29,718 nucleotides of DNA from a virus. Its lineage: Duplodnaviria > Caudoviricetes. Below the pieces are notes generated by a model. That model was not told where the DNA came from. It did no database searches and was given only the letters and a program-made list of their open reading frames with translations. Below are positions 5,511 to 13,639 of the stretch, one piece after another. The position numbers and the translations under genes were made by a program. The stretch covers positions 1-29,718 of the IMG/VR virus record IMGVR_UViG_3300032095_000017, one strand, 5' to 3'. Every line of letters starts with the position of its first letter. Position 1 is the stretch's first letter.

Positions 5511-5728
5511 GCCACGTTGACATTATGAAACGGCTGCACCTGCGGCCTTCTTTTAACTCTGTTATCAGCATTTCCGCCTGTTTCGCCGAGCCTGGGCAAC
5601 GCCGCAAGGTGAGTGCGGAAAAGCGCCAGCAAAACGCTACCCGTAGGCGGATTGAGGAACTTCACGAACTGAGAAGGCAAGCGGCAGAGCTGGGGATTTC
5701 ATTAGAAGAATTAAGGCGCGACTTATGA
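5507..5728 (+). CDS. Hypothetical early protein
   Basis: ATGA overlaps at both ends; basic coiled-coil C-terminus (RRRIEELHELRRQAAELGI). Confidence 0.7.
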   Translation: MSHVDIMKRLHLRPSFNSVISISACFAEPGQRRKVSAEKRQQNATRRRIEELHELRRQAAELGISLEELRRDL

Positions 5729-6855
5729 GTGTTAATCAAAAATGTTTCGAATCGGGAACAGCTAACGTAATCAACGTAAGTGGCGGAAAAGACAGTTTGG
5801 CCCAATGGCTGCTAGCTATAGAGCAAGGCGTGCCAAACATTTTTCCAGTATTTGCAGACACAGGGCATGAGCACCACCTGACCATGGAATATCTGGACAT
5901 GCTTGAGCAAAAACTAGGGAAAATTAATCGAGTAAAAGCAGACTTTACTGACCGGATAAGTAAAAAAAGGGAATACATAAGAGAGCACTGGCAAGAAGAC
6001 TTAATGACTGTTCAGCCTGGTCGTTGGAGGTCATTAACAAAGAAGCCAAAAACTAAAGCACCAACGGATGAACCAACAGATCCATTTGCTTTTTCACAAC
6101 AACGTGGTGAATGGATATGGATTACAGCAATTCCCGGTTTAAGTAGTGAACAGGCAAAAGCCATAGTTGAGAGAGCTATAGCTGCATTAGTCCCCACTGG
6201 CAACCCATTTATCGATCTGTGCCTTTGGAAAGGACGGTTTCCAAGTTCAAGAGCTAGATTTTGCAGCACGGAACTTAAGCATGAGCCAGTGAAGGTGCAG
6301 ATGGTTGAGCCACTTCTTTATCAATACGATGATGTAATTTGTTGGCAAGGCGTTAGGGCGCAGGAGTCGCCTGAACGGGCAGCGTTAAGCGATTTTGAAG
6401 TTGACGTAGACAACACGCCTGGGCTGCATGTTTACCGACCTATATTGAATTGGAAACATGAAGATGTGTTCACCAAGGCCAAACAGCACGGAATTGAACC
6501 AAACCCACTCTACAAAATGGGTTGTTCTCGAGTTGGATGCATGCCGTGTGTCAACGTAAACAAAAATGAACTGAGAGAAATATTCGAAAGATTCCCTGCT
6601 GTGCCTGTGTACATGGACGCCATGGAGAGCCTAGTTTCTGCAGCTAGTAAACGCCAAAATTCAACTTTCTTTTTTTCAGGGACAGACGCGAGAAAGGCCC
6701 AGTATGACACCAGGCTGGTAACTCTGGAGGAGTATGGGTTTTCAACATATCGAGACTGGGCATTTACTAGTCGAGGAGGCAAAAATTTTGACCTATTAGC
6801 AGCAATGACTGATAGGGCTGCATGCAATAGCGTGTATGCGGGGGTGTGCGAATGA
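5725..6855 (+). CDS. PAPS-reductase-family (CysH/DndC-like) PP-loop protein
   Basis: SGGKDS PP-loop, FADTGHE, RFCSTELK, GVRAQES and RVGCMPC motifs. Confidence 0.88.
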   Translation: MSVNQKCFESGTANVINVSGGKDSLAQWLLAIEQGVPNIFPVFADTGHEHHLTMEYLDMLEQKLGKINRVKADFTDRISKKREYIREHWQEDLMTVQPGRWRSLTKKPKTKAPTDEPTDPFAFSQQRGEWIWITAIPGLSSEQAKAIVERAIAALVPTGNPFIDLCLWKGRFPSSRARFCSTELKHEPVKVQMVEPLLYQYDDVICWQGVRAQESPERAALSDFEVDVDNTPGLHVYRPILNWKHEDVFTKAKQHGIEPNPLYKMGCSRVGCMPCVNVNKNELREIFERFPAVPVYMDAMESLVSAASKRQNSTFFFSGTDARKAQYDTRLVTLEEYGFSTYRDWAFTSRGGKNFDLLAAMTDRAACNSVYAGVCE

Positions 6856-7229: not shown

Positions 7230-7771
7230 GCAGCACTCACGGAAAAGTCAGAGCCAATGAGCTCTACCCAACACCGGATAACGTAGTCAGCGCCTTACTG
7301 AACAAACTGCAAATCAGGCCTACGGATCAATTTCTGGAACCCTGCAAAGGCCTGGGCGCTATCTTCAATCAGATTGATTTACCTGCCAGCCAAAAGCACT
7401 TTGCCGAGATTGCCGAGGGCATCGACTACCTGCAAACGCCATTTGGGCAAATGGACGTGATCATTACAAATCCGCCATTTAGCCTGACGGTTGAGTTTAT
7501 GCGCAAGTCGCTGTCAGAGCTGGCACCAGACGGCACCATGGCCTACTTGCAGCGGGTTAACTTTCTGGGCAGTAAAACCAGAGTGCCGTTTTGGGCCCAG
7601 GTCGGTTTTCCCGATAAGACGCCGATCATCATCCCCAGACCTCGCTTTGTGGGTGGCGGCTCAGACAGCTGTGAGTATTGCTGGTTTATCTATGACAGAG
7701 GTAACCGCTTTACCGCTATCCCTTCCGGGCTGAGCCACTTGCTCAGTGATGGAGTCGAGCAGGCCGCCTGA
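7226..7771 (+). CDS. Small amino (N6-A/N4-C) DNA methyltransferase
   Basis: ELYPTP, FLEPCKGLG (SAM-binding motif I) and IITNPPF (catalytic motif IV); ATG at 7226 overlaps the previous stop. Confidence 0.85.
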   Translation: MSSTHGKVRANELYPTPDNVVSALLNKLQIRPTDQFLEPCKGLGAIFNQIDLPASQKHFAEIAEGIDYLQTPFGQMDVIITNPPFSLTVEFMRKSLSELAPDGTMAYLQRVNFLGSKTRVPFWAQVGFPDKTPIIIPRPRFVGGGSDSCEYCWFIYDRGNRFTAIPSGLSHLLSDGVEQAA

Positions 7772-10002
7772 TGGATTTACAGCAATTTGAGCGACAGGCC
7801 GGGGTGAGTATCCCGGCCATTTTTGCCACCGCAAAAGCGCAAAACGACCTTAAACATGCCCAGCGTCACCTTGAGCGACTGCCGGATGATGTCGCGGCGA
7901 CCATGTTTCGCGAGTACATCGGCCGCTGGCGCCGGAACGAGCGCAGCGCCAATATTTGGCTGCGGCTCCGAGCTGCCGCCATCAGGGAAATGTTGACCCA
8001 GTTTCCGCTGCCAATCTGGCACATCAACACCGAAATACGCCGCGCCGCCATTGCCACCGAGTGGGCCGACCGTTGCCAGCGCCTGCTGAACAATGCCACC
8101 CAGTTTGGCCAGCAGCAGGTCGATGCCAAAGAGCTGCTGAACATAGTTAAGCAACCGGCCGACCAGTGGGGATTTTGCCCTGTGCTGCCGAGCTTCAAAA
8201 ACTACGACAGCAAAAAAGGCTGCGGCCAGTTTGACCGGGATCCAACCATGTACAACATGATTGCTGCCGCCATTGCCAGGCTGGTTGACGAAGCGTGGTG
8301 GGGCAGGCAACTGGAGAAAAGCTGGCGCCGATATCAGGAACATGCCGCCATTATCACTGGCCGGGTACGTGCCGGGGTTTCGCCTTATGTGTCTGCCCAA
8401 AGCCTGCGTGAATACAAACAGCGCAAACAGGCTGCCGGAGCGTGGCTCCACAGCAATTTTGTGATCAACGAAACCCACGGGCTGGAACTGCTGCTGGCTG
8501 ATGCCGTTGGCGCCAGTGTGGCCAACCCGGAAGTGCGTCGCGCCGAGCTGATGGTACGCATGCGCGGCTTTGAAGACTATGCCGAAGAAAACGGCTATGT
8601 GGGTGAGTTCTACACCTGGACTGCCCCGTCACGTTTCCACAGCTGGAAGAAATCAAAGAAAGGCCCCTGTTACGCCAATGGCCGTTACCGCGGCGCCAAT
8701 CCCAAAGACACCCAGGCTTACCTGTGCCAGCAGTGGGCCAAGACCCGCAGTAAACTGGCCCGGGAAGATGTCGACTTCTTTGGCTTTCGCGTGGTGGAGC
8801 CCCACCACGACGGCACGCCGCACTGGCACCTGCTGTTATTTGTGAAGCCCTCACAGCTGCGGCTGCTGCGGTCAATTATGCGCAGCTATGCCCTGGAACA
8901 TGACAAACACGACTTGGCCCCGGCCAAAGGCAAACGCGGCCCACGCTTCAGCGGCTACAGGCCGCGCTTCGACTTCAAAACCATTGACCCACAAAAGGGC
9001 AGCGCCACCGGCTATATCGCCAAATATATTGCCAAAAACATTGATGGTGCCTATGTCGCCGATGACTGGGAGGCAGAATCCAGCGGTAGCCATGGCGCAG
9101 AAGGTGTTACCGCCTGGGCCAGCACCTGGGGGATTAGGCAGTTTCAGCAAATTGGCGGCCCCAGCGTCACAGTTTGGCGAGAACTGCGGCGCCTGCGGGA
9201 GCCATGCGACTGGGACGACATTCTGGAAGATGCCCGCAGCGCAGCAGATACCAGCAACTGGCAGCGTTATGTCGAGGTAATGGGCGGCGCCTTCTGCCCA
9301 AGAGAATTGCGCCCGGTGCAACTGGCCAAAACCGTTAGCGAGCAGGCCAACCAATACGGCGAGGATGTGATCAAGATAATGGGCGTGCTTTCAAGCGAAA
9401 GCCACACCCCATTACACACCAGATTGGAAGGTTGGCAAATCTCAAGATATGGCCTCGGGCATGAAGGCGACACCGCTTTGCCAAGCGGCGACAGCCGCGC
9501 ACCTTGGAGTTCTGACAATAACTGTACGCAAGGATCCAAAGATCAAAAAAGGATCGGCAAATTGGAACAGGAAGCCGCCAAACTGGGGTTGGAGCCTGAA
9601 GATCTCGCGCTACTGCGCCATGGCTCGGTTATCAATAGCGGCGGAGTATTAATCAGCCTGCGCGACAACATGCTGCTGGTCAGCAAAGCCTCTGTCGCCG
9701 AGTCAGAACGGGCAGACGATTGGTCCACCATGGACAGCCACTTTGATGCCGCCGTTAAACACCACCACCAACAATGGCGCAAACAGCTGCGCGAACAGGC
9801 ATGGCAACTGCTGCAACATGGCGGTGATGTAGAGCAATGGATAGCCGGGTTGCCAAACCCGGATACCCAGCGCCTGGCGCTGGAGCAGCTGGCCGACGTT
9901 ATTGAGCTTGAGCGCATCGAGCGCCGGCAGCAGCAACACGCCGAACGCCAATATCAACAGCAAAAGTTCTGGGAGGATATCGAAGACGATGAACCTTTTT
10001 AA
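7771..10002 (+). CDS. A: Rolling-circle replication initiator gpA
   Basis: HUH motif EPHHDGTPHWHLL, catalytic GYIAKYIAKNIDG, and WGIRQFQQIGG. Confidence 0.95.
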   Translation: MDLQQFERQAGVSIPAIFATAKAQNDLKHAQRHLERLPDDVAATMFREYIGRWRRNERSANIWLRLRAAAIREMLTQFPLPIWHINTEIRRAAIATEWADRCQRLLNNATQFGQQQVDAKELLNIVKQPADQWGFCPVLPSFKNYDSKKGCGQFDRDPTMYNMIAAAIARLVDEAWWGRQLEKSWRRYQEHAAIITGRVRAGVSPYVSAQSLREYKQRKQAAGAWLHSNFVINETHGLELLLADAVGASVANPEVRRAELMVRMRGFEDYAEENGYVGEFYTWTAPSRFHSWKKSKKGPCYANGRYRGANPKDTQAYLCQQWAKTRSKLAREDVDFFGFRVVEPHHDGTPHWHLLLFVKPSQLRLLRSIMRSYALEHDKHDLAPAKGKRGPRFSGYRPRFDFKTIDPQKGSATGYIAKYIAKNIDGAYVADDWEAESSGSHGAEGVTAWASTWGIRQFQQIGGPSVTVWRELRRLREPCDWDDILEDARSAADTSNWQRYVEVMGGAFCPRELRPVQLAKTVSEQANQYGEDVIKIMGVLSSESHTPLHTRLEGWQISRYGLGHEGDTALPSGDSRAPWSSDNNCTQGSKDQKRIGKLEQEAAKLGLEPEDLALLRHGSVINSGGVLISLRDNMLLVSKASVAESERADDWSTMDSHFDAAVKHHHQQWRKQLREQAWQLLQHGGDVEQWIAGLPNPDTQRLALEQLADVIELERIERRQQQHAERQYQQQKFWEDIEDDEPF
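9497..9528 (+). other. Replication origin (gpA nick site) inside gene A
   Basis: GCGCACCTTGGAGTTCTGACAATAACTGTACG closely resembles the P2/186 ori (GCGCCTCG/GAGTCCTGTCAATAACTGT). Confidence 0.8.
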
Positions 10003-10231
10003 TCTGATGCCGGCGGCAGACCGCGAACGCTACCAACAGGCCCAGCAGCAAACCCGTGAACACCTGGAACGCTGGAAGCGCTGCAAGGCCAAGTTGGATG
10101 GCTTCAACCGCAAACAAATAGTGGCCTGGCTAGACCGCTTACCGATTGATGAGCGTGAAAAGTGTCGCACCGTACTCAACAACATAATGGCGGCCCGTAA
10201 GGCCAAAGAGCAACAACAGAGGGAAGCATGA
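9989..10231 (+). CDS. Hypothetical protein
   Basis: ATG at 9989 with ggagg upstream; overlaps the gpA stop and is coupled to the next gene. Confidence 0.6.
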   Translation: MNLFNLMPAADRERYQQAQQQTREHLERWKRCKAKLDGFNRKQIVAWLDRLPIDEREKCRTVLNNIMAARKAKEQQQREA

Positions 10232-10494
10232 AAATCACAGCTAACCTGCTGACAACTGTAACTATCACACCGACAGAACAGGATCGCATTGTCCGGGAGC
10301 GTCTGGCTCAGTTACTGGGGCTTTCAGCCTCAGAGCTGGGCGATCTCAGTCTTAAAGATGGAAAGCTACTGATGGAAGACTGGCACTATCACAGTAGTAC
10401 TACCAGAGTGTTGCGTGATGCCACCCCGCTAGATCAATCCGTGATCACTGTGCTGTCTGCCATGACTAAAGGTTATTCTGGCACGATGAGCTGA
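10228..10494 (+). CDS. Hypothetical protein
   Basis: 88-aa ORF with ATGA overlap. Confidence 0.7.
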   Translation: MKITANLLTTVTITPTEQDRIVRERLAQLLGLSASELGDLSLKDGKLLMEDWHYHSSTTRVLRDATPLDQSVITVLSAMTKGYSGTMS

Positions 10495-10528
10495 ATTAGA
10501 TTCTAAGAAAAATTAACGAATAAAAAAC

Positions 10529-10557
10529 TTGCAATTGGTCGCAATTGCGACCATAAT
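10529..10557 (+). promoter_or_regulatory. acr-aca2 operon promoter with palindromic Aca2 operator
   Basis: TTGCAA (10529-10534), 17-bp spacer, CATAAT (10552-10557), A-rich upstream; perfect palindrome TGGTCGCAA/TTGCGACCA at 10536-10553. Confidence 0.88.
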
Positions 10558-10566
10558 AAATTCAAC

Positions 10567-10610
10567 GGTTCGGCAATGGGTCGAACCAACTCAGCAAAGT
10601 GAGATAAAAA
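10567..10610 (+). promoter_or_regulatory. Double stem-loop 5' leader, copy 1 (putative Aca2 RNA-binding motif)
   Basis: GGTTCGGC-aatgg-GTCGAACC, aa, CTCA-gcaaag-TGAG, ataaaaa, then ATG. Confidence 0.8.
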
Positions 10611-10964
10611 ATGACTAAATCAGAAATATTCAAAGCAGCACACGAAATGGCTCGCGGCACTGTTAAAGCCGTTGGCAACTACACAGTAGCGTTTCAATTA
10701 GCTTTAAGCACAGTTCAAAACCATCTTAAGAACGGTGTTGGCGAGATAGCTCCTGTTGACCGCTCTAACCGTTATGCTAAGCGAGTTCGTCTTGCCCCTG
10801 TTTATACTGCCACAATGGTTGCCAAATACATTAAAGAGAATTCACGCATGCTTCGCGTTTTTACTTCACTAACTGCTTATAACGAAGAGTTCAAAGCTGG
10901 CAAGGTTGGCAAGTTCTGGGTAGACGCAAAGCATGATGGATTCTTGGCTTACGAATACTTTTAA
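10611..10964 (+). CDS. Candidate anti-CRISPR/anti-defence protein 1 (117 aa)
   Basis: First gene after the Aca2-operator promoter, upstream of aca2; small, AT-rich, no recognised domain. Confidence 0.7.
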   Translation: MTKSEIFKAAHEMARGTVKAVGNYTVAFQLALSTVQNHLKNGVGEIAPVDRSNRYAKRVRLAPVYTATMVAKYIKENSRMLRVFTSLTAYNEEFKAGKVGKFWVDAKHDGFLAYEYF

Positions 10965-10965
10965 T

Positions 10966-11009
10966 GATTCGGGATTGGCTCGGATCAACTCAGAAAAGTG
11001 AGATAAAAA
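10966..11009 (+). promoter_or_regulatory. Double stem-loop 5' leader, copy 2 (putative Aca2 RNA-binding motif)
   Basis: GATTCGGG-attgg-CTCGGATC, aa, CTCA-gaaaag-TGAG, ataaaaa, then ATG; same length as copy 1 with compensatory stem changes. Confidence 0.8.
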
Positions 11010-11279
11010 ATGGAAAATTTAAAATTCAAATCATCAACAATGGGTCTGATGGCTTCGCACAAAAATATGTCGACATGCAAACTGGTTCGCGTTGAATTTT
11101 ATGAAAAAAATGATGGAAGCATATTGCTTAAGGCGGTAAGCGGTCACTCATTGAACACTATAAAATCTATCGCATTCGTTACAATACCTCGCAGTGAGTA
11201 CGCCGACAGGCCTTACGACTATTACGATGATGCAGTTGAAGCAATTTGGGCATTCGGAAAGCTCGGGCTAGAAATTTAA
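11010..11279 (+). CDS. Candidate anti-CRISPR/anti-defence protein 2 (89 aa)
   Basis: Immediately upstream of aca2 with its own leader copy; acidic/aromatic C-terminus (EYADRPYDYYDDAVE); no recognised domain. Confidence 0.72.
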   Translation: MENLKFKSSTMGLMASHKNMSTCKLVRVEFYEKNDGSILLKAVSGHSLNTIKSIAFVTIPRSEYADRPYDYYDDAVEAIWAFGKLGLEI

Positions 11280-11283
11280 AATC

Positions 11284-11304
11284 AAGGGGCTTATGCCCCT
11301 TTTT
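11284..11304 (+). terminator. Intrinsic terminator between the candidate acr genes and aca2
   Basis: AAGGGGC-ttat-GCCCCTT followed by further Ts. Confidence 0.7.
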
Positions 11305-11318
11305 ACGGAGTTTAATTT

Positions 11319-11678
11319 ATGACTAACAACGAACTAAAGCAGCTTAGGCGCTTACTGTTTCTCGAAGTTAACGAGGCGGCCAAATTGATCGGTAACTGTG
11401 AGCCTCGCACCTGGCAACGCTGGGAAAAAGGTGATCGCTCTATTCCTGCTGATATCATTCAAACTGTCCAGATGCTGGCTTTAACGCGAATGGATCGTTT
11501 GCAGGTAGACATTGATGACCAAAGCCCTAACTACCGTTATTTCGACAGATTTTCCGATTATAAAGCAGCTGGAGGTGCTGGAAACGAGCTGATGTGGCGT
11601 TTGGCTCAATCAGTAGCAACTGAAGTGCTATGCGAAAGAGAGTCGGACCAGTGGCGGGAAGAAGAAACGATTAATTAG
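11319..11678 (+). CDS. aca2: Anti-CRISPR-associated repressor Aca2 (YdiL/DUF1870 HTH family)
   Basis: MTNNELKQLRRLLFLEVNEAAKLIG...RTWQRWEKGDRSIP...WRLAQSVA matches the Aca2 signature (MTNxELxxxRxLLxLxVxEAA...W..WE.G...P...WRL.QSVA); RBS ggag. Confidence 0.9.
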   Translation: MTNNELKQLRRLLFLEVNEAAKLIGNCEPRTWQRWEKGDRSIPADIIQTVQMLALTRMDRLQVDIDDQSPNYRYFDRFSDYKAAGGAGNELMWRLAQSVATEVLCERESDQWREEETIN

Positions 11679-11697
11679 AAATATCGCTCTTATCAAA

Positions 11698-12006
11698 TCA
11701 ACCATCACACTCGCCGGGCAGCAGCTCGGCAATGGCCTGCAGGTGGCGGCAAATCTTCTGCTTGTCTGCCTGGCTCAAAATCGCCAGCGGCTCCTGCGGG
11801 CTGTAGTCCAACAAATCACGCAAGCGCATATCCAACGCATCGGCAATCGCCATTAACACGCTGAGACGCATATCATAGCCACGCTCAATCTTGCCTATGG
11901 TTCGGCTACTGACGCCAACCGTATCCGCGAGTTGAGTCTGTGTCATTTTCATTTTTTTCCGTTGGTTTCCAATCCGTTGGCCAATCAGATCAAAGCTGAT
12001 GGTCAT
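11698..12006 (-). CDS. XRE-family HTH transcriptional regulator
   Basis: IGQRIGNQRKKMKMTQTQLADTVGVSSRTIGKIERG...LMAIADAL is a canonical HTH_3 pattern. Confidence 0.85.
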   Translation of the reverse strand: MTISFDLIGQRIGNQRKKMKMTQTQLADTVGVSSRTIGKIERGYDMRLSVLMAIADALDMRLRDLLDYSPQEPLAILSQADKQKICRHLQAIAELLPGECDG

Positions 12007-12148
12007 TCGTCACAAATCTGCTGAGTAAGAAGAGTTTTTCCTAAAGGATAGGTCAAAAGGGACTATTTTTGCCGAATTCAAACAATAGACTTGGATATTA
12101 TCAGGCGTGCGGTAACAGGATTTGCTGTTAAATTAAGGAGTTGTATAA

Positions 12149-12346
12149 ATGTGCATATTGATTAGGCAAATGGATTTAGTCATAAGAGCAATTGAATGCA
12201 ATGCGTCAGCGGACGATAAAGAAACCGCCATCAGCTTGATGGCGGCGATAGTCAAAAACGGTTGTGAAGGGTGCGAACTTAAAACCGCAATTCCTGTTGC
12301 AACTGCTTGCGCGCCTCGGGTGGTAAGGCCCTCACCAACTCAATGA
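12149..12346 (+). CDS. Small protein resembling the phage 186 Tum antirepressor N-terminus
   Basis: RBS taaggag; LIRQMDLVIR...DDKETAISLMAAI aligns by eye with Tum (IERVEMIAR...DREIALNLIAEI, recalled from memory). Confidence 0.5.
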   Translation: MCILIRQMDLVIRAIECNASADDKETAISLMAAIVKNGCEGCELKTAIPVATACAPRVVRPSPTQ

Positions 12347-12527
12347 CCAGATTACTGGCAGAGCGGGAACTGGGGCTTAGAGTGTGGCTGAAACTGAGAT
12401 TAACCACAAAAGTATGGCCACACTCTGCATCGGTGCAGCTACAATACAAATCAGCATGCACCAATGACAAACGATTGGTTTTGCTGATCCTGGCCCGTTG
12501 GCCACAGGTTGGACACATTACCCGCAT
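12279..12527 (-). CDS. ogr: Ogr/Delta zinc-finger late-gene activator
   Basis: CPTCG...LYCSCTDAECGHTF...SHTLSPS. Confidence 0.92.
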   Translation of the reverse strand: MRVMCPTCGQRARISKTNRLSLVHADLYCSCTDAECGHTFVVNLSFSHTLSPSSRSASNLVIELVRALPPEARKQLQQELRF

Positions 12528-12562
12528 TCCGATCTCCCCATCGAAACAAGCACTAATGCAAC

Positions 12563-12596
12563 AGTTTACGCCAGGGTACTGTTTTTTTAAACAGTG
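12563..12596 (-). promoter_or_regulatory. Putative ogr promoter overlapped by a LexA (SOS) box
   Basis: taCTGTTTTTTTAAACAGtg (CTG-N10-CAG, 12579-12594); on the minus strand TTTAAA (12591-12586), 17-bp spacer, TAAACT (12568-12563). Confidence 0.6.
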
Positions 12597-13639
12597 CTGC
12601 CACCTTCTTGCAAATCAAACTTCAGTTTAACCGCCTGAGGCACCTCGGGATCCCTATCAACCGCGTCGCGCATTTCCATTAACAGCGCCTTGGTTTCGGT
12701 GCGGAAATACACCTCTTCATAGGTTTGCGGGTTGCCGAAGCCGGCCGTGTTGCTGGGGATAATCCCAGCCAGCCCGGGCGGGAAACGGTGAGCGTTAAGC
12801 ACATCCTGAGCGCTGACGTTTTTCACGTTCATAAACTCATCTTTCGACTCGAAGTTACCAACGGGGATGATTTGAATCCCTTTCTCTTTGCCGTTGGGAA
12901 TATTCACAAACAGTGAGCGGAAGTTACCCACCCCTTTGCTGTCCTGAATCTTTTGCTTTAGCTCTTCCTCGGTTTCCGGGTCCAGGTTGGGATCTGTGGC
13001 ATACATGATAAAGCCCATGTGCGCGCCGTTGATGTAGTATTTACGGCGGAACATAGTCGCGTCTTCATTCAGCAGTGCCGCCTGCAAGCCGCCCAAGTAG
13101 TCGGGGCAGCCGTATACTTGCTGAACCGTGTCATACTGGCGCACCCAAATAATATTGCGCGCCTTGTAAACCCGTTTCTCGTTATTGGCTTCAAGCACCA
13201 CGGCGCCGCCGTCACGGCTGACTCGAGTACGATAACTCGGCAGCGGGAACAGCCGCAGCACCCGCCCGAAACCGTCGCGGATCTTCAAAAGCGCCACATC
13301 GCCAAAGGTGATGTGATTCAAAAATGCCGCCTTGACCTCCTGCGCCGTCATACCGCCGCCTTGATAACGGGCCGCCGCCATATTGGCGCGACTCTGGATA
13401 ATACCGCCGTGCTGGGCATTTTTCCTCGGCAGTTTCGCCAGCAGCTGCCGGTCAACAGGTGGCTCCCAATAGCCGTTGTTTTCGTCAAACCACAGGCTGT
13501 CGTAATCTGTTAGCCACTGATTGGGATCCATGGTTTCCGGCAATGAAAACACCACAGTGCCATTGTCACGCTGGCTGTCAGGGGCCGCTTGTTGTTGATG
13601 AAAGCGGCGGCCTTTGGATTTTACGCGGCGAGAGCCCAT
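12587..13639 (-). CDS. Q: Portal protein (PBSX family, P2 gpQ)
   Basis: [36 protein letters not shown] and [13 protein letters not shown]. Confidence 0.95.

Follow-up and report, generated by a model that had tools for sequence, protein, structure and literature searches.

A predicted acr-aca2 operon with a duplicated two-hairpin RNA leader and two unnamed cargo genes in a P2/HP1-like phage

In the acrIF8-aca2 operon of Pectobacterium phage ZF40, the promoter is reported to carry an inverted repeat (IR1, TTCG-N6-CGAA) between its -35 and -10 hexamers, and the repressor Aca2 binds to IR1 at approximately 1 nM and thereby represses the operon (PMC6765145). ZF40 Aca2 has been described as reading the half-site through R30, Y34 and R39, with Y34 contacting the T of the half-site, and Shewanella and Vibrio homologs of Aca2 are reported to have an Asp at position 39 (PMC8633003). 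Two other loci resemble the one described here, namely the KEK29118-acrIF10-aca2 locus of a Shewanella xiamenensis prophage, whose AcrIF10 is listed as KEK29119 in a table of PMC6538845, and gene 22-aca2 of Pasteurella phage vB_PmuM_CFP3 (CFP3). More broadly, 450 genes have been placed under predicted Aca1 or Aca2 control, and more than half of them are without a function (PMC13551039). Here we analyzed positions 10529 to 11678 of IMG/VR record IMGVR_UViG_3300032095_000017, a phage sequence of 29,718 nucleotides that we refer to as the window. We read this segment as an anti-CRISPR (acr)-aca2 operon whose two cargo proteins, encoded by open reading frames ORF1 and ORF2, are likely anti-CRISPR (Acr) or other anti-defense proteins, and whose Aca2 is predicted to repress both transcription and translation. 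We assign this reading as a whole a probability of roughly 0.7. Its regulatory part, as read from the sequence, is well supported. The features of the operon are as follows.

10529-10534, plus strand: -35 hexamer TTGCAA
10536-10553, strand-neutral: perfect 18-bp palindrome TGGTCGCAATTGCGACCA, predicted Aca2 operator of the IR1 type (GGTCG-N6-CGACC)
10552-10557, plus strand: -10 hexamer CATAAT, sharing the last 2 bp of the palindrome
10564-10613, plus strand: first copy of the leader RNA motif (hairpin 1, 10567-10587; hairpin 2, 10590-10603), followed by the ATG of ORF1
10611-10964, plus strand: ORF1, 117 aa, isoelectric point (pI) 9.8, unnamed family, candidate anti-defense protein
10963-11012, plus strand: second copy of the leader RNA motif, within the operon (hairpin 1, 10965-10987; hairpin 2, 10989-11002), followed by the ATG of ORF2
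11010-11279, plus strand: ORF2, 89 aa, pI 6.7, unnamed family, candidate anti-CRISPR, in the slot held by AcrIF10 in sister loci
11284-11304, plus strand: terminator-like, GC-rich hairpin AAGGGGC-TTAT-GCCCCTT with a T run after it (placed on the minus strand by the terminator listing)
11319-11678, plus strand: aca2, whose 119-aa product is an Aca2/YdiL-family helix-turn-helix (HTH) repressor; GGAG Shine-Dalgarno sequence at 11307-11310

An initial annotation of this DNA had described a near-consensus sigma70 promoter with a perfect 18-bp palindrome in its spacer, and had noted that Aca2 represses acr promoters through inverted repeats. All coordinates that it gave for features of the segment proved correct when the sequence was reread. 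The position of the promoter and the 17-nt spacer between the -35 and -10 hexamers stand, while the term "near-consensus" is slightly generous for hexamers with 9 of 12 consensus matches in the promoter listing. The palindrome does lie within the spacer, and its two 9-nt arms are 100% complementary. No other perfect palindrome among the 25 longest inverted repeats listed for the window is as long, the next ones measuring 14 bp. As in ZF40, then, a sigma70-type promoter holds an IR1 palindrome with a 6-nt center in its spacer, and aca2 is the last gene. The promoter-operator block aligns column by column with those of ZF40 and CFP3 and with two copies each from L001 (Shewanella cutis) and L002 (a Plesiomonas metagenome-assembled genome, MAG); the -35 hexamer reads TTGCAA or TTGCTA in 4/4 promoter copies of the latter two loci. 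CFP3, which is itself a P2-like phage, has the same operator (TGGTCGTAATTGCGACCA). When the operator plus the -10 hexamer was used to search IMG/VR, four loci (L022 to L025) were returned, and aca2 lies downstream in all four. The palindrome is a predicted Aca2 operator of the ZF40 IR1 type, with the same geometry and aligned with related loci.

The third open reading frame of the operon belongs to the Aca2 family to which it had been assigned. Its product matches the PF08965 (Aca2_YdiL/DUF1870) hidden Markov model over residues 1-106 with a score of 63.8 bits (cut-off 23.8) and an E-value of 2.1e-17, and it matches the solved Aca2 chains 8w35, 7vjo and 7b5j over residues 1-107 (E 1e-18 to 4.6e-18), as well as the solved Aca2 7ezy (E 2.8e-17) and YdiL 1s4k (E 7e-10). 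It is approximately 38% identical to ZF40 Aca2 and keeps R30, with R34 and D39-R40 in place of the Y34 and R39 of ZF40. The T that is contacted by ZF40 Y34 is a G in the operator half-site of the window. We found R30, R34 and D/E39-R40 together with a GGTCG half-site in 8/8 loci (the window, L001, L002, L022, L023, L024, L025 and CFP3), whereas ZF40 combines Y34 and R39 with the half-site GTTCG. At the sequence level, the recognition residues of Aca2 and the operator half-site co-vary.

Each of the two cargo genes is directly preceded by a two-hairpin RNA leader. The leader upstream of ORF1 is 53 nt long and the spacer between ORF1 and ORF2 is 45 nt long, and the two leader copies form a 59-nt direct repeat ahead of both starts (81% identical, spacing 399). 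Copy 2 stands without an accompanying promoter or operator; leader-type motifs have been reported also between genes within operons. Folding of the RNA gave -15.8 kcal/mol for copy 1 (z -3.05) and -13.7 kcal/mol for copy 2 (z -3.34), and the layout is a hairpin of 8-9 bp, a gap of 1-2 nt, and a hairpin of 4 bp that finishes 7 nt ahead of the ATG. The two hairpins are alike in 8/8 leaders folded, these being the two of the window, those of both cargo genes of L001 and L002, that of ZF40 acrIF8, which ends approximately 10 nt before the start codon, and that of CFP3, which has flipped stem pairs. Pairing is complete in the six Shewanella-type copies (72/72 cells), and both sides change in 2 of the 12 pairs (C-G/G-C/A-U and G-C/G-U/A-U). 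One further pair is G-U in all six copies, which fits an RNA on this strand and not a DNA palindrome.

These six copies were used to build a covariance model, R1, for which the window copies were part of the training (77.3 and 73.2 bits). Among 75,274 bases, R1 gave its best non-training scores to the leaders of CFP3 (24.4 bits, E 1.8e-6) and of ZF40 acrIF8 (22.1 bits, E 1.5e-5), so that a model built without ZF40 finds the ZF40 leader. R1 finds exactly two copies in the window and five more copies, at 42-75 bits, in 4/4 IMG/VR loci; a search of Rfam over 10000-12600 returned no family. By these comparisons, the leaders directly ahead of both ORF1 and ORF2 are homologous to the ZF40 acrIF8 leader. 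Since there is one operator and there are two leader copies, Aca2 would have a single DNA operator in this operon and an RNA site at each of the two cargo genes. The comparison also bears on ZF40 itself (L018 612-647), in which the deposited acrIF8 coding sequence starts at an ATG inside leader hairpin 1 (locus position 612). An alternative ATG at 645 lies 7 nt past a GAGGA in hairpin 2, as the leader architecture of all other loci would have it, and thus the deposited start may be too far upstream.

The terminator-like hairpin lies 5 nt past the ORF2 stop codon and 15 nt ahead of the aca2 start codon. This leaves no room for a promoter between the hairpin and aca2, so aca2 must be read through the hairpin. 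A hairpin is clear at the same place, with differing stems, in six of nine loci (the window, L001, L002, L023, L025 and CFP3); it is degenerate in L022 and absent from L024, in which the genes overlap, and from ZF40, which has only a 10-nt gap before aca2. The hairpin is a putative attenuator, which we infer would hold Aca2 below the levels of the cargo proteins early on. This hairpin, the duplicated RNA leader, and the tie between ORF1 and the original AcrIF10 locus described below are new beyond the initial annotation.

The window differs from ZF40 in having two cargo genes rather than one, both encoding proteins unrelated to ZF40 AcrIF8, with the second leader copy inside the operon. A second comparison is with the KEK29118-acrIF10-aca2 locus, which L022 represents here. 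In each other locus read (L001, L002 and L022), a relative of ORF1 is the first gene, followed by AcrIF10 and then aca2. The ORF1-family protein of L022 reads identical to P0002, which is KEK29118.1 of S. xiamenensis, and the KEK29118-AcrIF10 pair is adjacent in L022. Judged from these sequences, the ORF1 family is the gene immediately upstream of the original AcrIF10 of S. xiamenensis. ORF1 is 65-79% identical to its relatives across genera, and Aca2 is 62-68% identical in the same pairs; the operator subtype, the leader, and the position of the hairpin before aca2 are shared as well. In L001, L002 and L022, both cargo genes have a promoter, operator and leader of their own, in contrast to the window, where one promoter serves both and the leader alone is duplicated. 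The second slot, which encodes AcrIF10 in those loci, encodes the unrelated ORF2 in the window. Those three loci, which combine AcrIF10 with an ORF1 relative, also have a conserved gene of 165-173 aa after aca2 (L001 5199-5714, L002 5119-5640, L022 2636-3133) that gives only a weak DUF7226/HTH_50 signal and is absent from the window.

To place the cargo genes by association, we counted the genes directly behind a leader motif in nine loci (the window, L001, L002, ZF40, CFP3 as L019, and L022 to L025). Of 13 such genes, four encode AcrIF10, two AcrIF8 or a relative of it, four the ORF1 family, two the ORF2 family, and one another protein. AcrIF10 was recognized in L001 by its match to 6anw (E 1.1e-56), in L022 and L023 by BLASTP, and in L002 by evident similarity that was not separately scored. 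L023, from a P2-like phage, has ogr followed by AcrIF10 (75%) and aca2, with no ORF1; L024 has an AcrIF8 relative (36%, E 3e-10) followed by aca2; and L025 has an acidic 89-aa protein followed by the Aca2 closest to that of the window (67%). All identifiable cargo behind this type of operator and leader (6/6) consists of type I-F anti-CRISPRs or their relatives, with no other kind among them. ORF1 and ORF2 homologs share contigs, the longest contigs being equal (24,545 and 78,830). Type I-F systems are reported to be conserved across Shewanella and Vibrio (PMC12887000). The initial annotation had called the segment an anti-CRISPR operon and had named type I-F or I-E CRISPR-Cas as the most likely target of both cargo genes. 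The first part agrees with the Aca2-marked architecture, the IR1 operator, and the type I-F inhibitors in sister slots, while the proposal that both are anti-defense proteins aimed at I-F or I-E is a matter of association. At least one of ORF1 and ORF2 is probably an anti-defense protein. As a side observation, the 89-aa protein of L025 (oriented 1216-1485) is very acidic, adjoins an integrase, has the same operator and leader, and has no match among PDB sequences; it is a further unnamed Acr candidate.

ORF2 has two close homologs (92% and 82%), one of them from a Shewanella algae MAG, and both are named "hypothetical protein". A more distant relative is the 79-aa gene ahead of aca2 in CFP3 (hhalign probability 80%, E 1.4e-5). 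That locus has a single cargo gene, with 25% identity to ORF2, and a 308-aa gene after aca2; its cargo is likewise uncharacterized and adds no function to the relation. With BLASTP, we also found a 90-aa gene of a Pseudomonas syringae megaplasmid that is 33% identical over 83 ungapped residues (pairwise E 2e-15, collection-level E 0.02). This relative, WP_054076272.1, lies at 2501-2773 of L020, from plasmid pMG4_1215 of P. syringae pv. actinidiae, among approximately 12 small co-directional hypothetical genes; around it, R1 found no Aca2 leader motif, and no aca2 was noticed. ORF2 has no match in Pfam, PHROGs or NCBIfam, none in a viral-contig scan made with its alignment, and an ESM Atlas score of 0.77, which is noise. 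We considered ORF2 as an AcrIF10 homolog and rejected the assignment, because ORF2 has 0 matches among PDB sequences at E up to 10, and hence no sequence likeness to AcrIF10 (6anw/6b48), while the L001 slot-2 protein matches 6anw at the E-value given above. Comparison of its fold with the small beta-sheet-plus-helix inhibitors AcrIF1 (PDB 6b46 chain I), Ugi and PliI gave matches within background. Going by its position, ORF2 is likely an anti-CRISPR.

ORF1 has 19 homologs (45-94% identity), in Shewanella, Vibrio cholerae, V. parahaemolyticus, Plesiomonas and other assemblies, and every one that bears a name is a "hypothetical protein". The ratio of nonsynonymous to synonymous substitution rates (dN/dS) is 0.11-0.13, indicating purifying selection and thus that ORF1 is a real gene. 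An AlphaFold2 (AF2) model with a predicted local distance difference test score (pLDDT) of 85.7 shows a helical hairpin at the N-terminus and, toward the C-terminus, a small alpha/beta part. The fold search returned nothing above background, which shows neither a new nor a known fold. ORF1 has no match in Pfam or NCBIfam, matches only phrog_12732 (unknown function) in PHROGs, at its N-terminus, and gives only histone noise against PDB sequences. A search of 401 genomes from the order to which the lysogen G001 belongs gave only the two homologs already known, and there were none in the viral-contig scan or in plasmids. An assignment to Phage_Gp111 (PF07410) was rejected; the sole lead was that ESM Atlas clusters nearest ORF1 have PF07410 in 10-38% of their members, and 0/20 members of the ORF1 family match it even at E up to 10. 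We would put the chance that ORF1 is an anti-defense protein at about even.

A metagenome scan with the ORF1 alignment returned N-terminal matches only, in 13 loci (L005-L017) that match from residues 1-32 up to residues 1-92. In these loci, the ORF1-like N-terminal 30-45 residues (MTKSEIFKAAH...GNY..AF.LAL) are nearly invariant and head at least 11 complete proteins of 59-148 aa with unrelated C-termini; 11 of these small proteins were searched against Pfam, and none has a match. By eye, a palindrome lies between the -35 and -10 hexamers of at least four promoters (L006, L007, L013 and L015), like those of repressor-gated early operons. On a bolder reading, which we consider unlikely, ORF1 would be the founder of an unnoticed class of proteins that join a near-invariant helical hairpin of approximately 40 residues to swappable C-terminal "warheads", and ORF2 would be a further new anti-CRISPR family. 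The class would then consist of first genes behind repressor-gated strong promoters, with the hairpin as a common handle, and would constitute a modular early anti-defense family beside AcrIF10, a proposal that we hold at the same low confidence.

Under our preferred reading as an acr-aca2 operon, the unrepressed promoter would fire upon DNA entry, with ORF1 and ORF2 as the first products. Only a fraction of the transcripts would get past the hairpin before aca2, and Aca2 would be low at first. As it accumulated, the Aca2 dimer would bind to the palindrome and block RNA polymerase, and Aca2 would also bind to both leader motifs, so that ribosome access to the two cargo genes would be blocked independently. 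ORF2, in the slot of AcrIF10, would inhibit the CRISPR-Cas system of the host, with type I-F as a first guess. ORF1, conserved in the first position ahead of AcrIF10 or ORF2, would add a second inhibitory activity, directed at CRISPR-Cas or at another defense. If this is true, the operon encodes two families of anti-defense proteins without known fold relatives, of which ORF1 would stand out as the unnamed neighbor of the well-studied AcrIF10. The locus would also be a compact natural case of three-level control by one regulator, through a promoter operator, a per-gene RNA leader and a putative attenuator, and it could serve to test how Aca2 tunes individual genes within one transcript.

Several observations weigh against this reading. 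With respect to regulation, 6 promoter-like sites were counted in the region and 3.4 ± 1.9 in shuffled sequences, so the hexamers alone are not significant. The pattern GGTCG-N6-CGACC with at most one mismatch occurs once in the window, and 36/100 shuffles have at least one match to it; the weight of the operator therefore comes from its conservation in related loci. The covariation score of the leaders was equaled in 4/500 shuffles, and since the six copies are related and the control is lenient for kin, this is suggestive and not proof. Aca2-like regulators are also present outside acr loci (PMC8434428). With respect to the cargo, ORF1 is basic, unlike the acidic DNA-mimic Acrs, and KEK29118 has adjoined AcrIF10 since 2016 without receiving an Acr name; it may already have been assayed and found inactive. 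No aca2 was noticed in the ORF lists of the loci that match only the N-terminus of ORF1, among which only the neighbor gene of L009 was scanned against Pfam, and the recurrence of the N-terminal 40 residues with other C-termini suggests that the role of ORF1 may exceed CRISPR inhibition. The AF2 model of ORF2, a four-stranded beta-sheet with helices, has a moderate pLDDT of 72.3 and was built from three sequences. Finally, Csy1 (PF09611) was found in 0/2 lysogens examined (G001 and G002), a count that says nothing about the CRISPR type of the hosts.

Among the alternatives, the one that survives best is that only ORF2 is an inhibitor and that ORF1 is a basic nucleic-acid-binding or accessory early protein that, under Aca2 control, would act for example as a helper, as a second regulator or in host takeover. 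The pI of ORF1 and its N-terminal helical hairpin would suit such a protein, as would the recurrence of that hairpin at the 13 metagenome loci, where it heads many small phage proteins whose C-termini are unrelated. ORF1 is also never alone, a second cargo gene being next in 4/4 loci, and its conservation across genera, similar to or above that of aca2, is better than that of a typical fast-evolving Acr. The missing Acr name of KEK29118, whose accession was not found in the literature searched, points the same way. However, the ORF1 homologs of L001, L002 and L022 each have their own complete Aca2 promoter, operator and leader, as expected of an independent cargo cassette and not of a helper, and AcrIF10 works alone and stands without ORF1 in L023. 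We therefore regard an accessory role for ORF1 as possible but doubtful.

The cargo could instead target non-CRISPR defenses such as restriction or abortive infection, or serve the lysogen as a moron or in superinfection exclusion, with Aca2 as a general repressor. Aca-regulated operons are reported to hold many function-less genes, non-Acr anti-defense genes, helicases and restriction-modification systems (PMC13551039), and the settings of Aca2-like regulators are diverse (PMC8434428). The operon lies between gene A and ogr, in an accessory region of the phage, and neither aca2 nor the leader motif accompanies the array of small unknown genes that holds the P. syringae plasmid relative of ORF2. 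Set against this are the exclusively type I-F anti-CRISPR identity of the 6/6 identifiable cargo genes behind this operator and leader type and the replacement of AcrIF10 by ORF2 in position, and we think a non-CRISPR role for the cargo unlikely.

It is improbable that ORF1 or ORF2 is an already named anti-CRISPR missed by the searches, so that nothing here would be new, since, although AcrIF16 homologs occur in Shewanellaceae and Vibrionaceae (PMC7648647), neither protein has an NCBIfam, Pfam or PHROG name, the PDB searches gave no match for ORF2 and histone noise for ORF1, the source names of the homologs are all "hypothetical protein", and neither the peptide words nor the accessions of the relatives turned up in published lists or text. 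Specifically, six peptide words of ORF1 and ORF2 are absent from 12 supplementary files of PMC7648647 that list Acr homolog sequences, and none of the accessions and peptide words searched occurs in those files or in the PMC13551039 supplement. The literature search found no mention of KEK29118, WP_037415909, WP_054076272, WBY65453, GAB1116119, WP_345883569 or WP_148535196. No named Acr matched either protein in Pfam, NCBIfam, PHROGs or PDB (dbAPIS, Anti-CRISPRdb and AcrHub were outside the search), nor did any fold, in agreement with the earlier statement that neither is recognizable as a named Acr. The operator-plus-leader module is itself an effective search handle, as it retrieved both known Acrs and new unknowns.

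The phage that carries the operon is P2/HP1-like, and the 29.7-kb record is a complete virus on a stand-alone single contig. Family scans identified replication protein A, Ogr, portal, terminase, GPO scaffold, GPL, gpR, tape measure and baseplate J. The nearest phage records are only approximately 68% identical, with Pseudoalteromonas phage C5a first, followed by Aeromonas and Vibrio P2-like phages. The operon lies in a low-GC (guanine plus cytosine) island in the accessory slot between gene A and ogr, as had been annotated; GC content is 0.421 in the island (10495-11697), 0.528 in the window and 0.576 in gene A. No match to the island DNA was found in phage and E. coli collections, and the repeat listing gave no terminal repeats or target duplications flanking it. 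The surrounding genes are as follows.

7771-10002: gene A (gpA), PF05840, E 1.3e-87
11698-12006, minus strand: gene for a 102-aa Xre/HTH_3 regulator, PF01381, E 7.6e-12
12279-12527, minus strand: ogr (Ogr), PF04606, E 1e-16

The Xre/HTH_3 gene, between aca2 and ogr, is convergent to aca2 with a gap of 19 bp, lies on the same strand as ogr and downstream of it, and is without a partner gene. On the other side of the island, two small ORFs fill the interval 9902-10494 from gene A to the island, one of 109 aa (pI 10.3), which overlaps the end of gene A, and one of 88 aa; neither has a family match in Pfam, PHROGs or NCBIfam, and GC content drops stepwise across them toward the island, from 0.54 to 0.50. 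Upstream of gene A, the 376-aa product of positions 5725-6855 carries a PAPS-reductase domain (PF01507, E 3.9e-30). Genes of the PAPS-reductase type are frequently associated with phage DNA modification.

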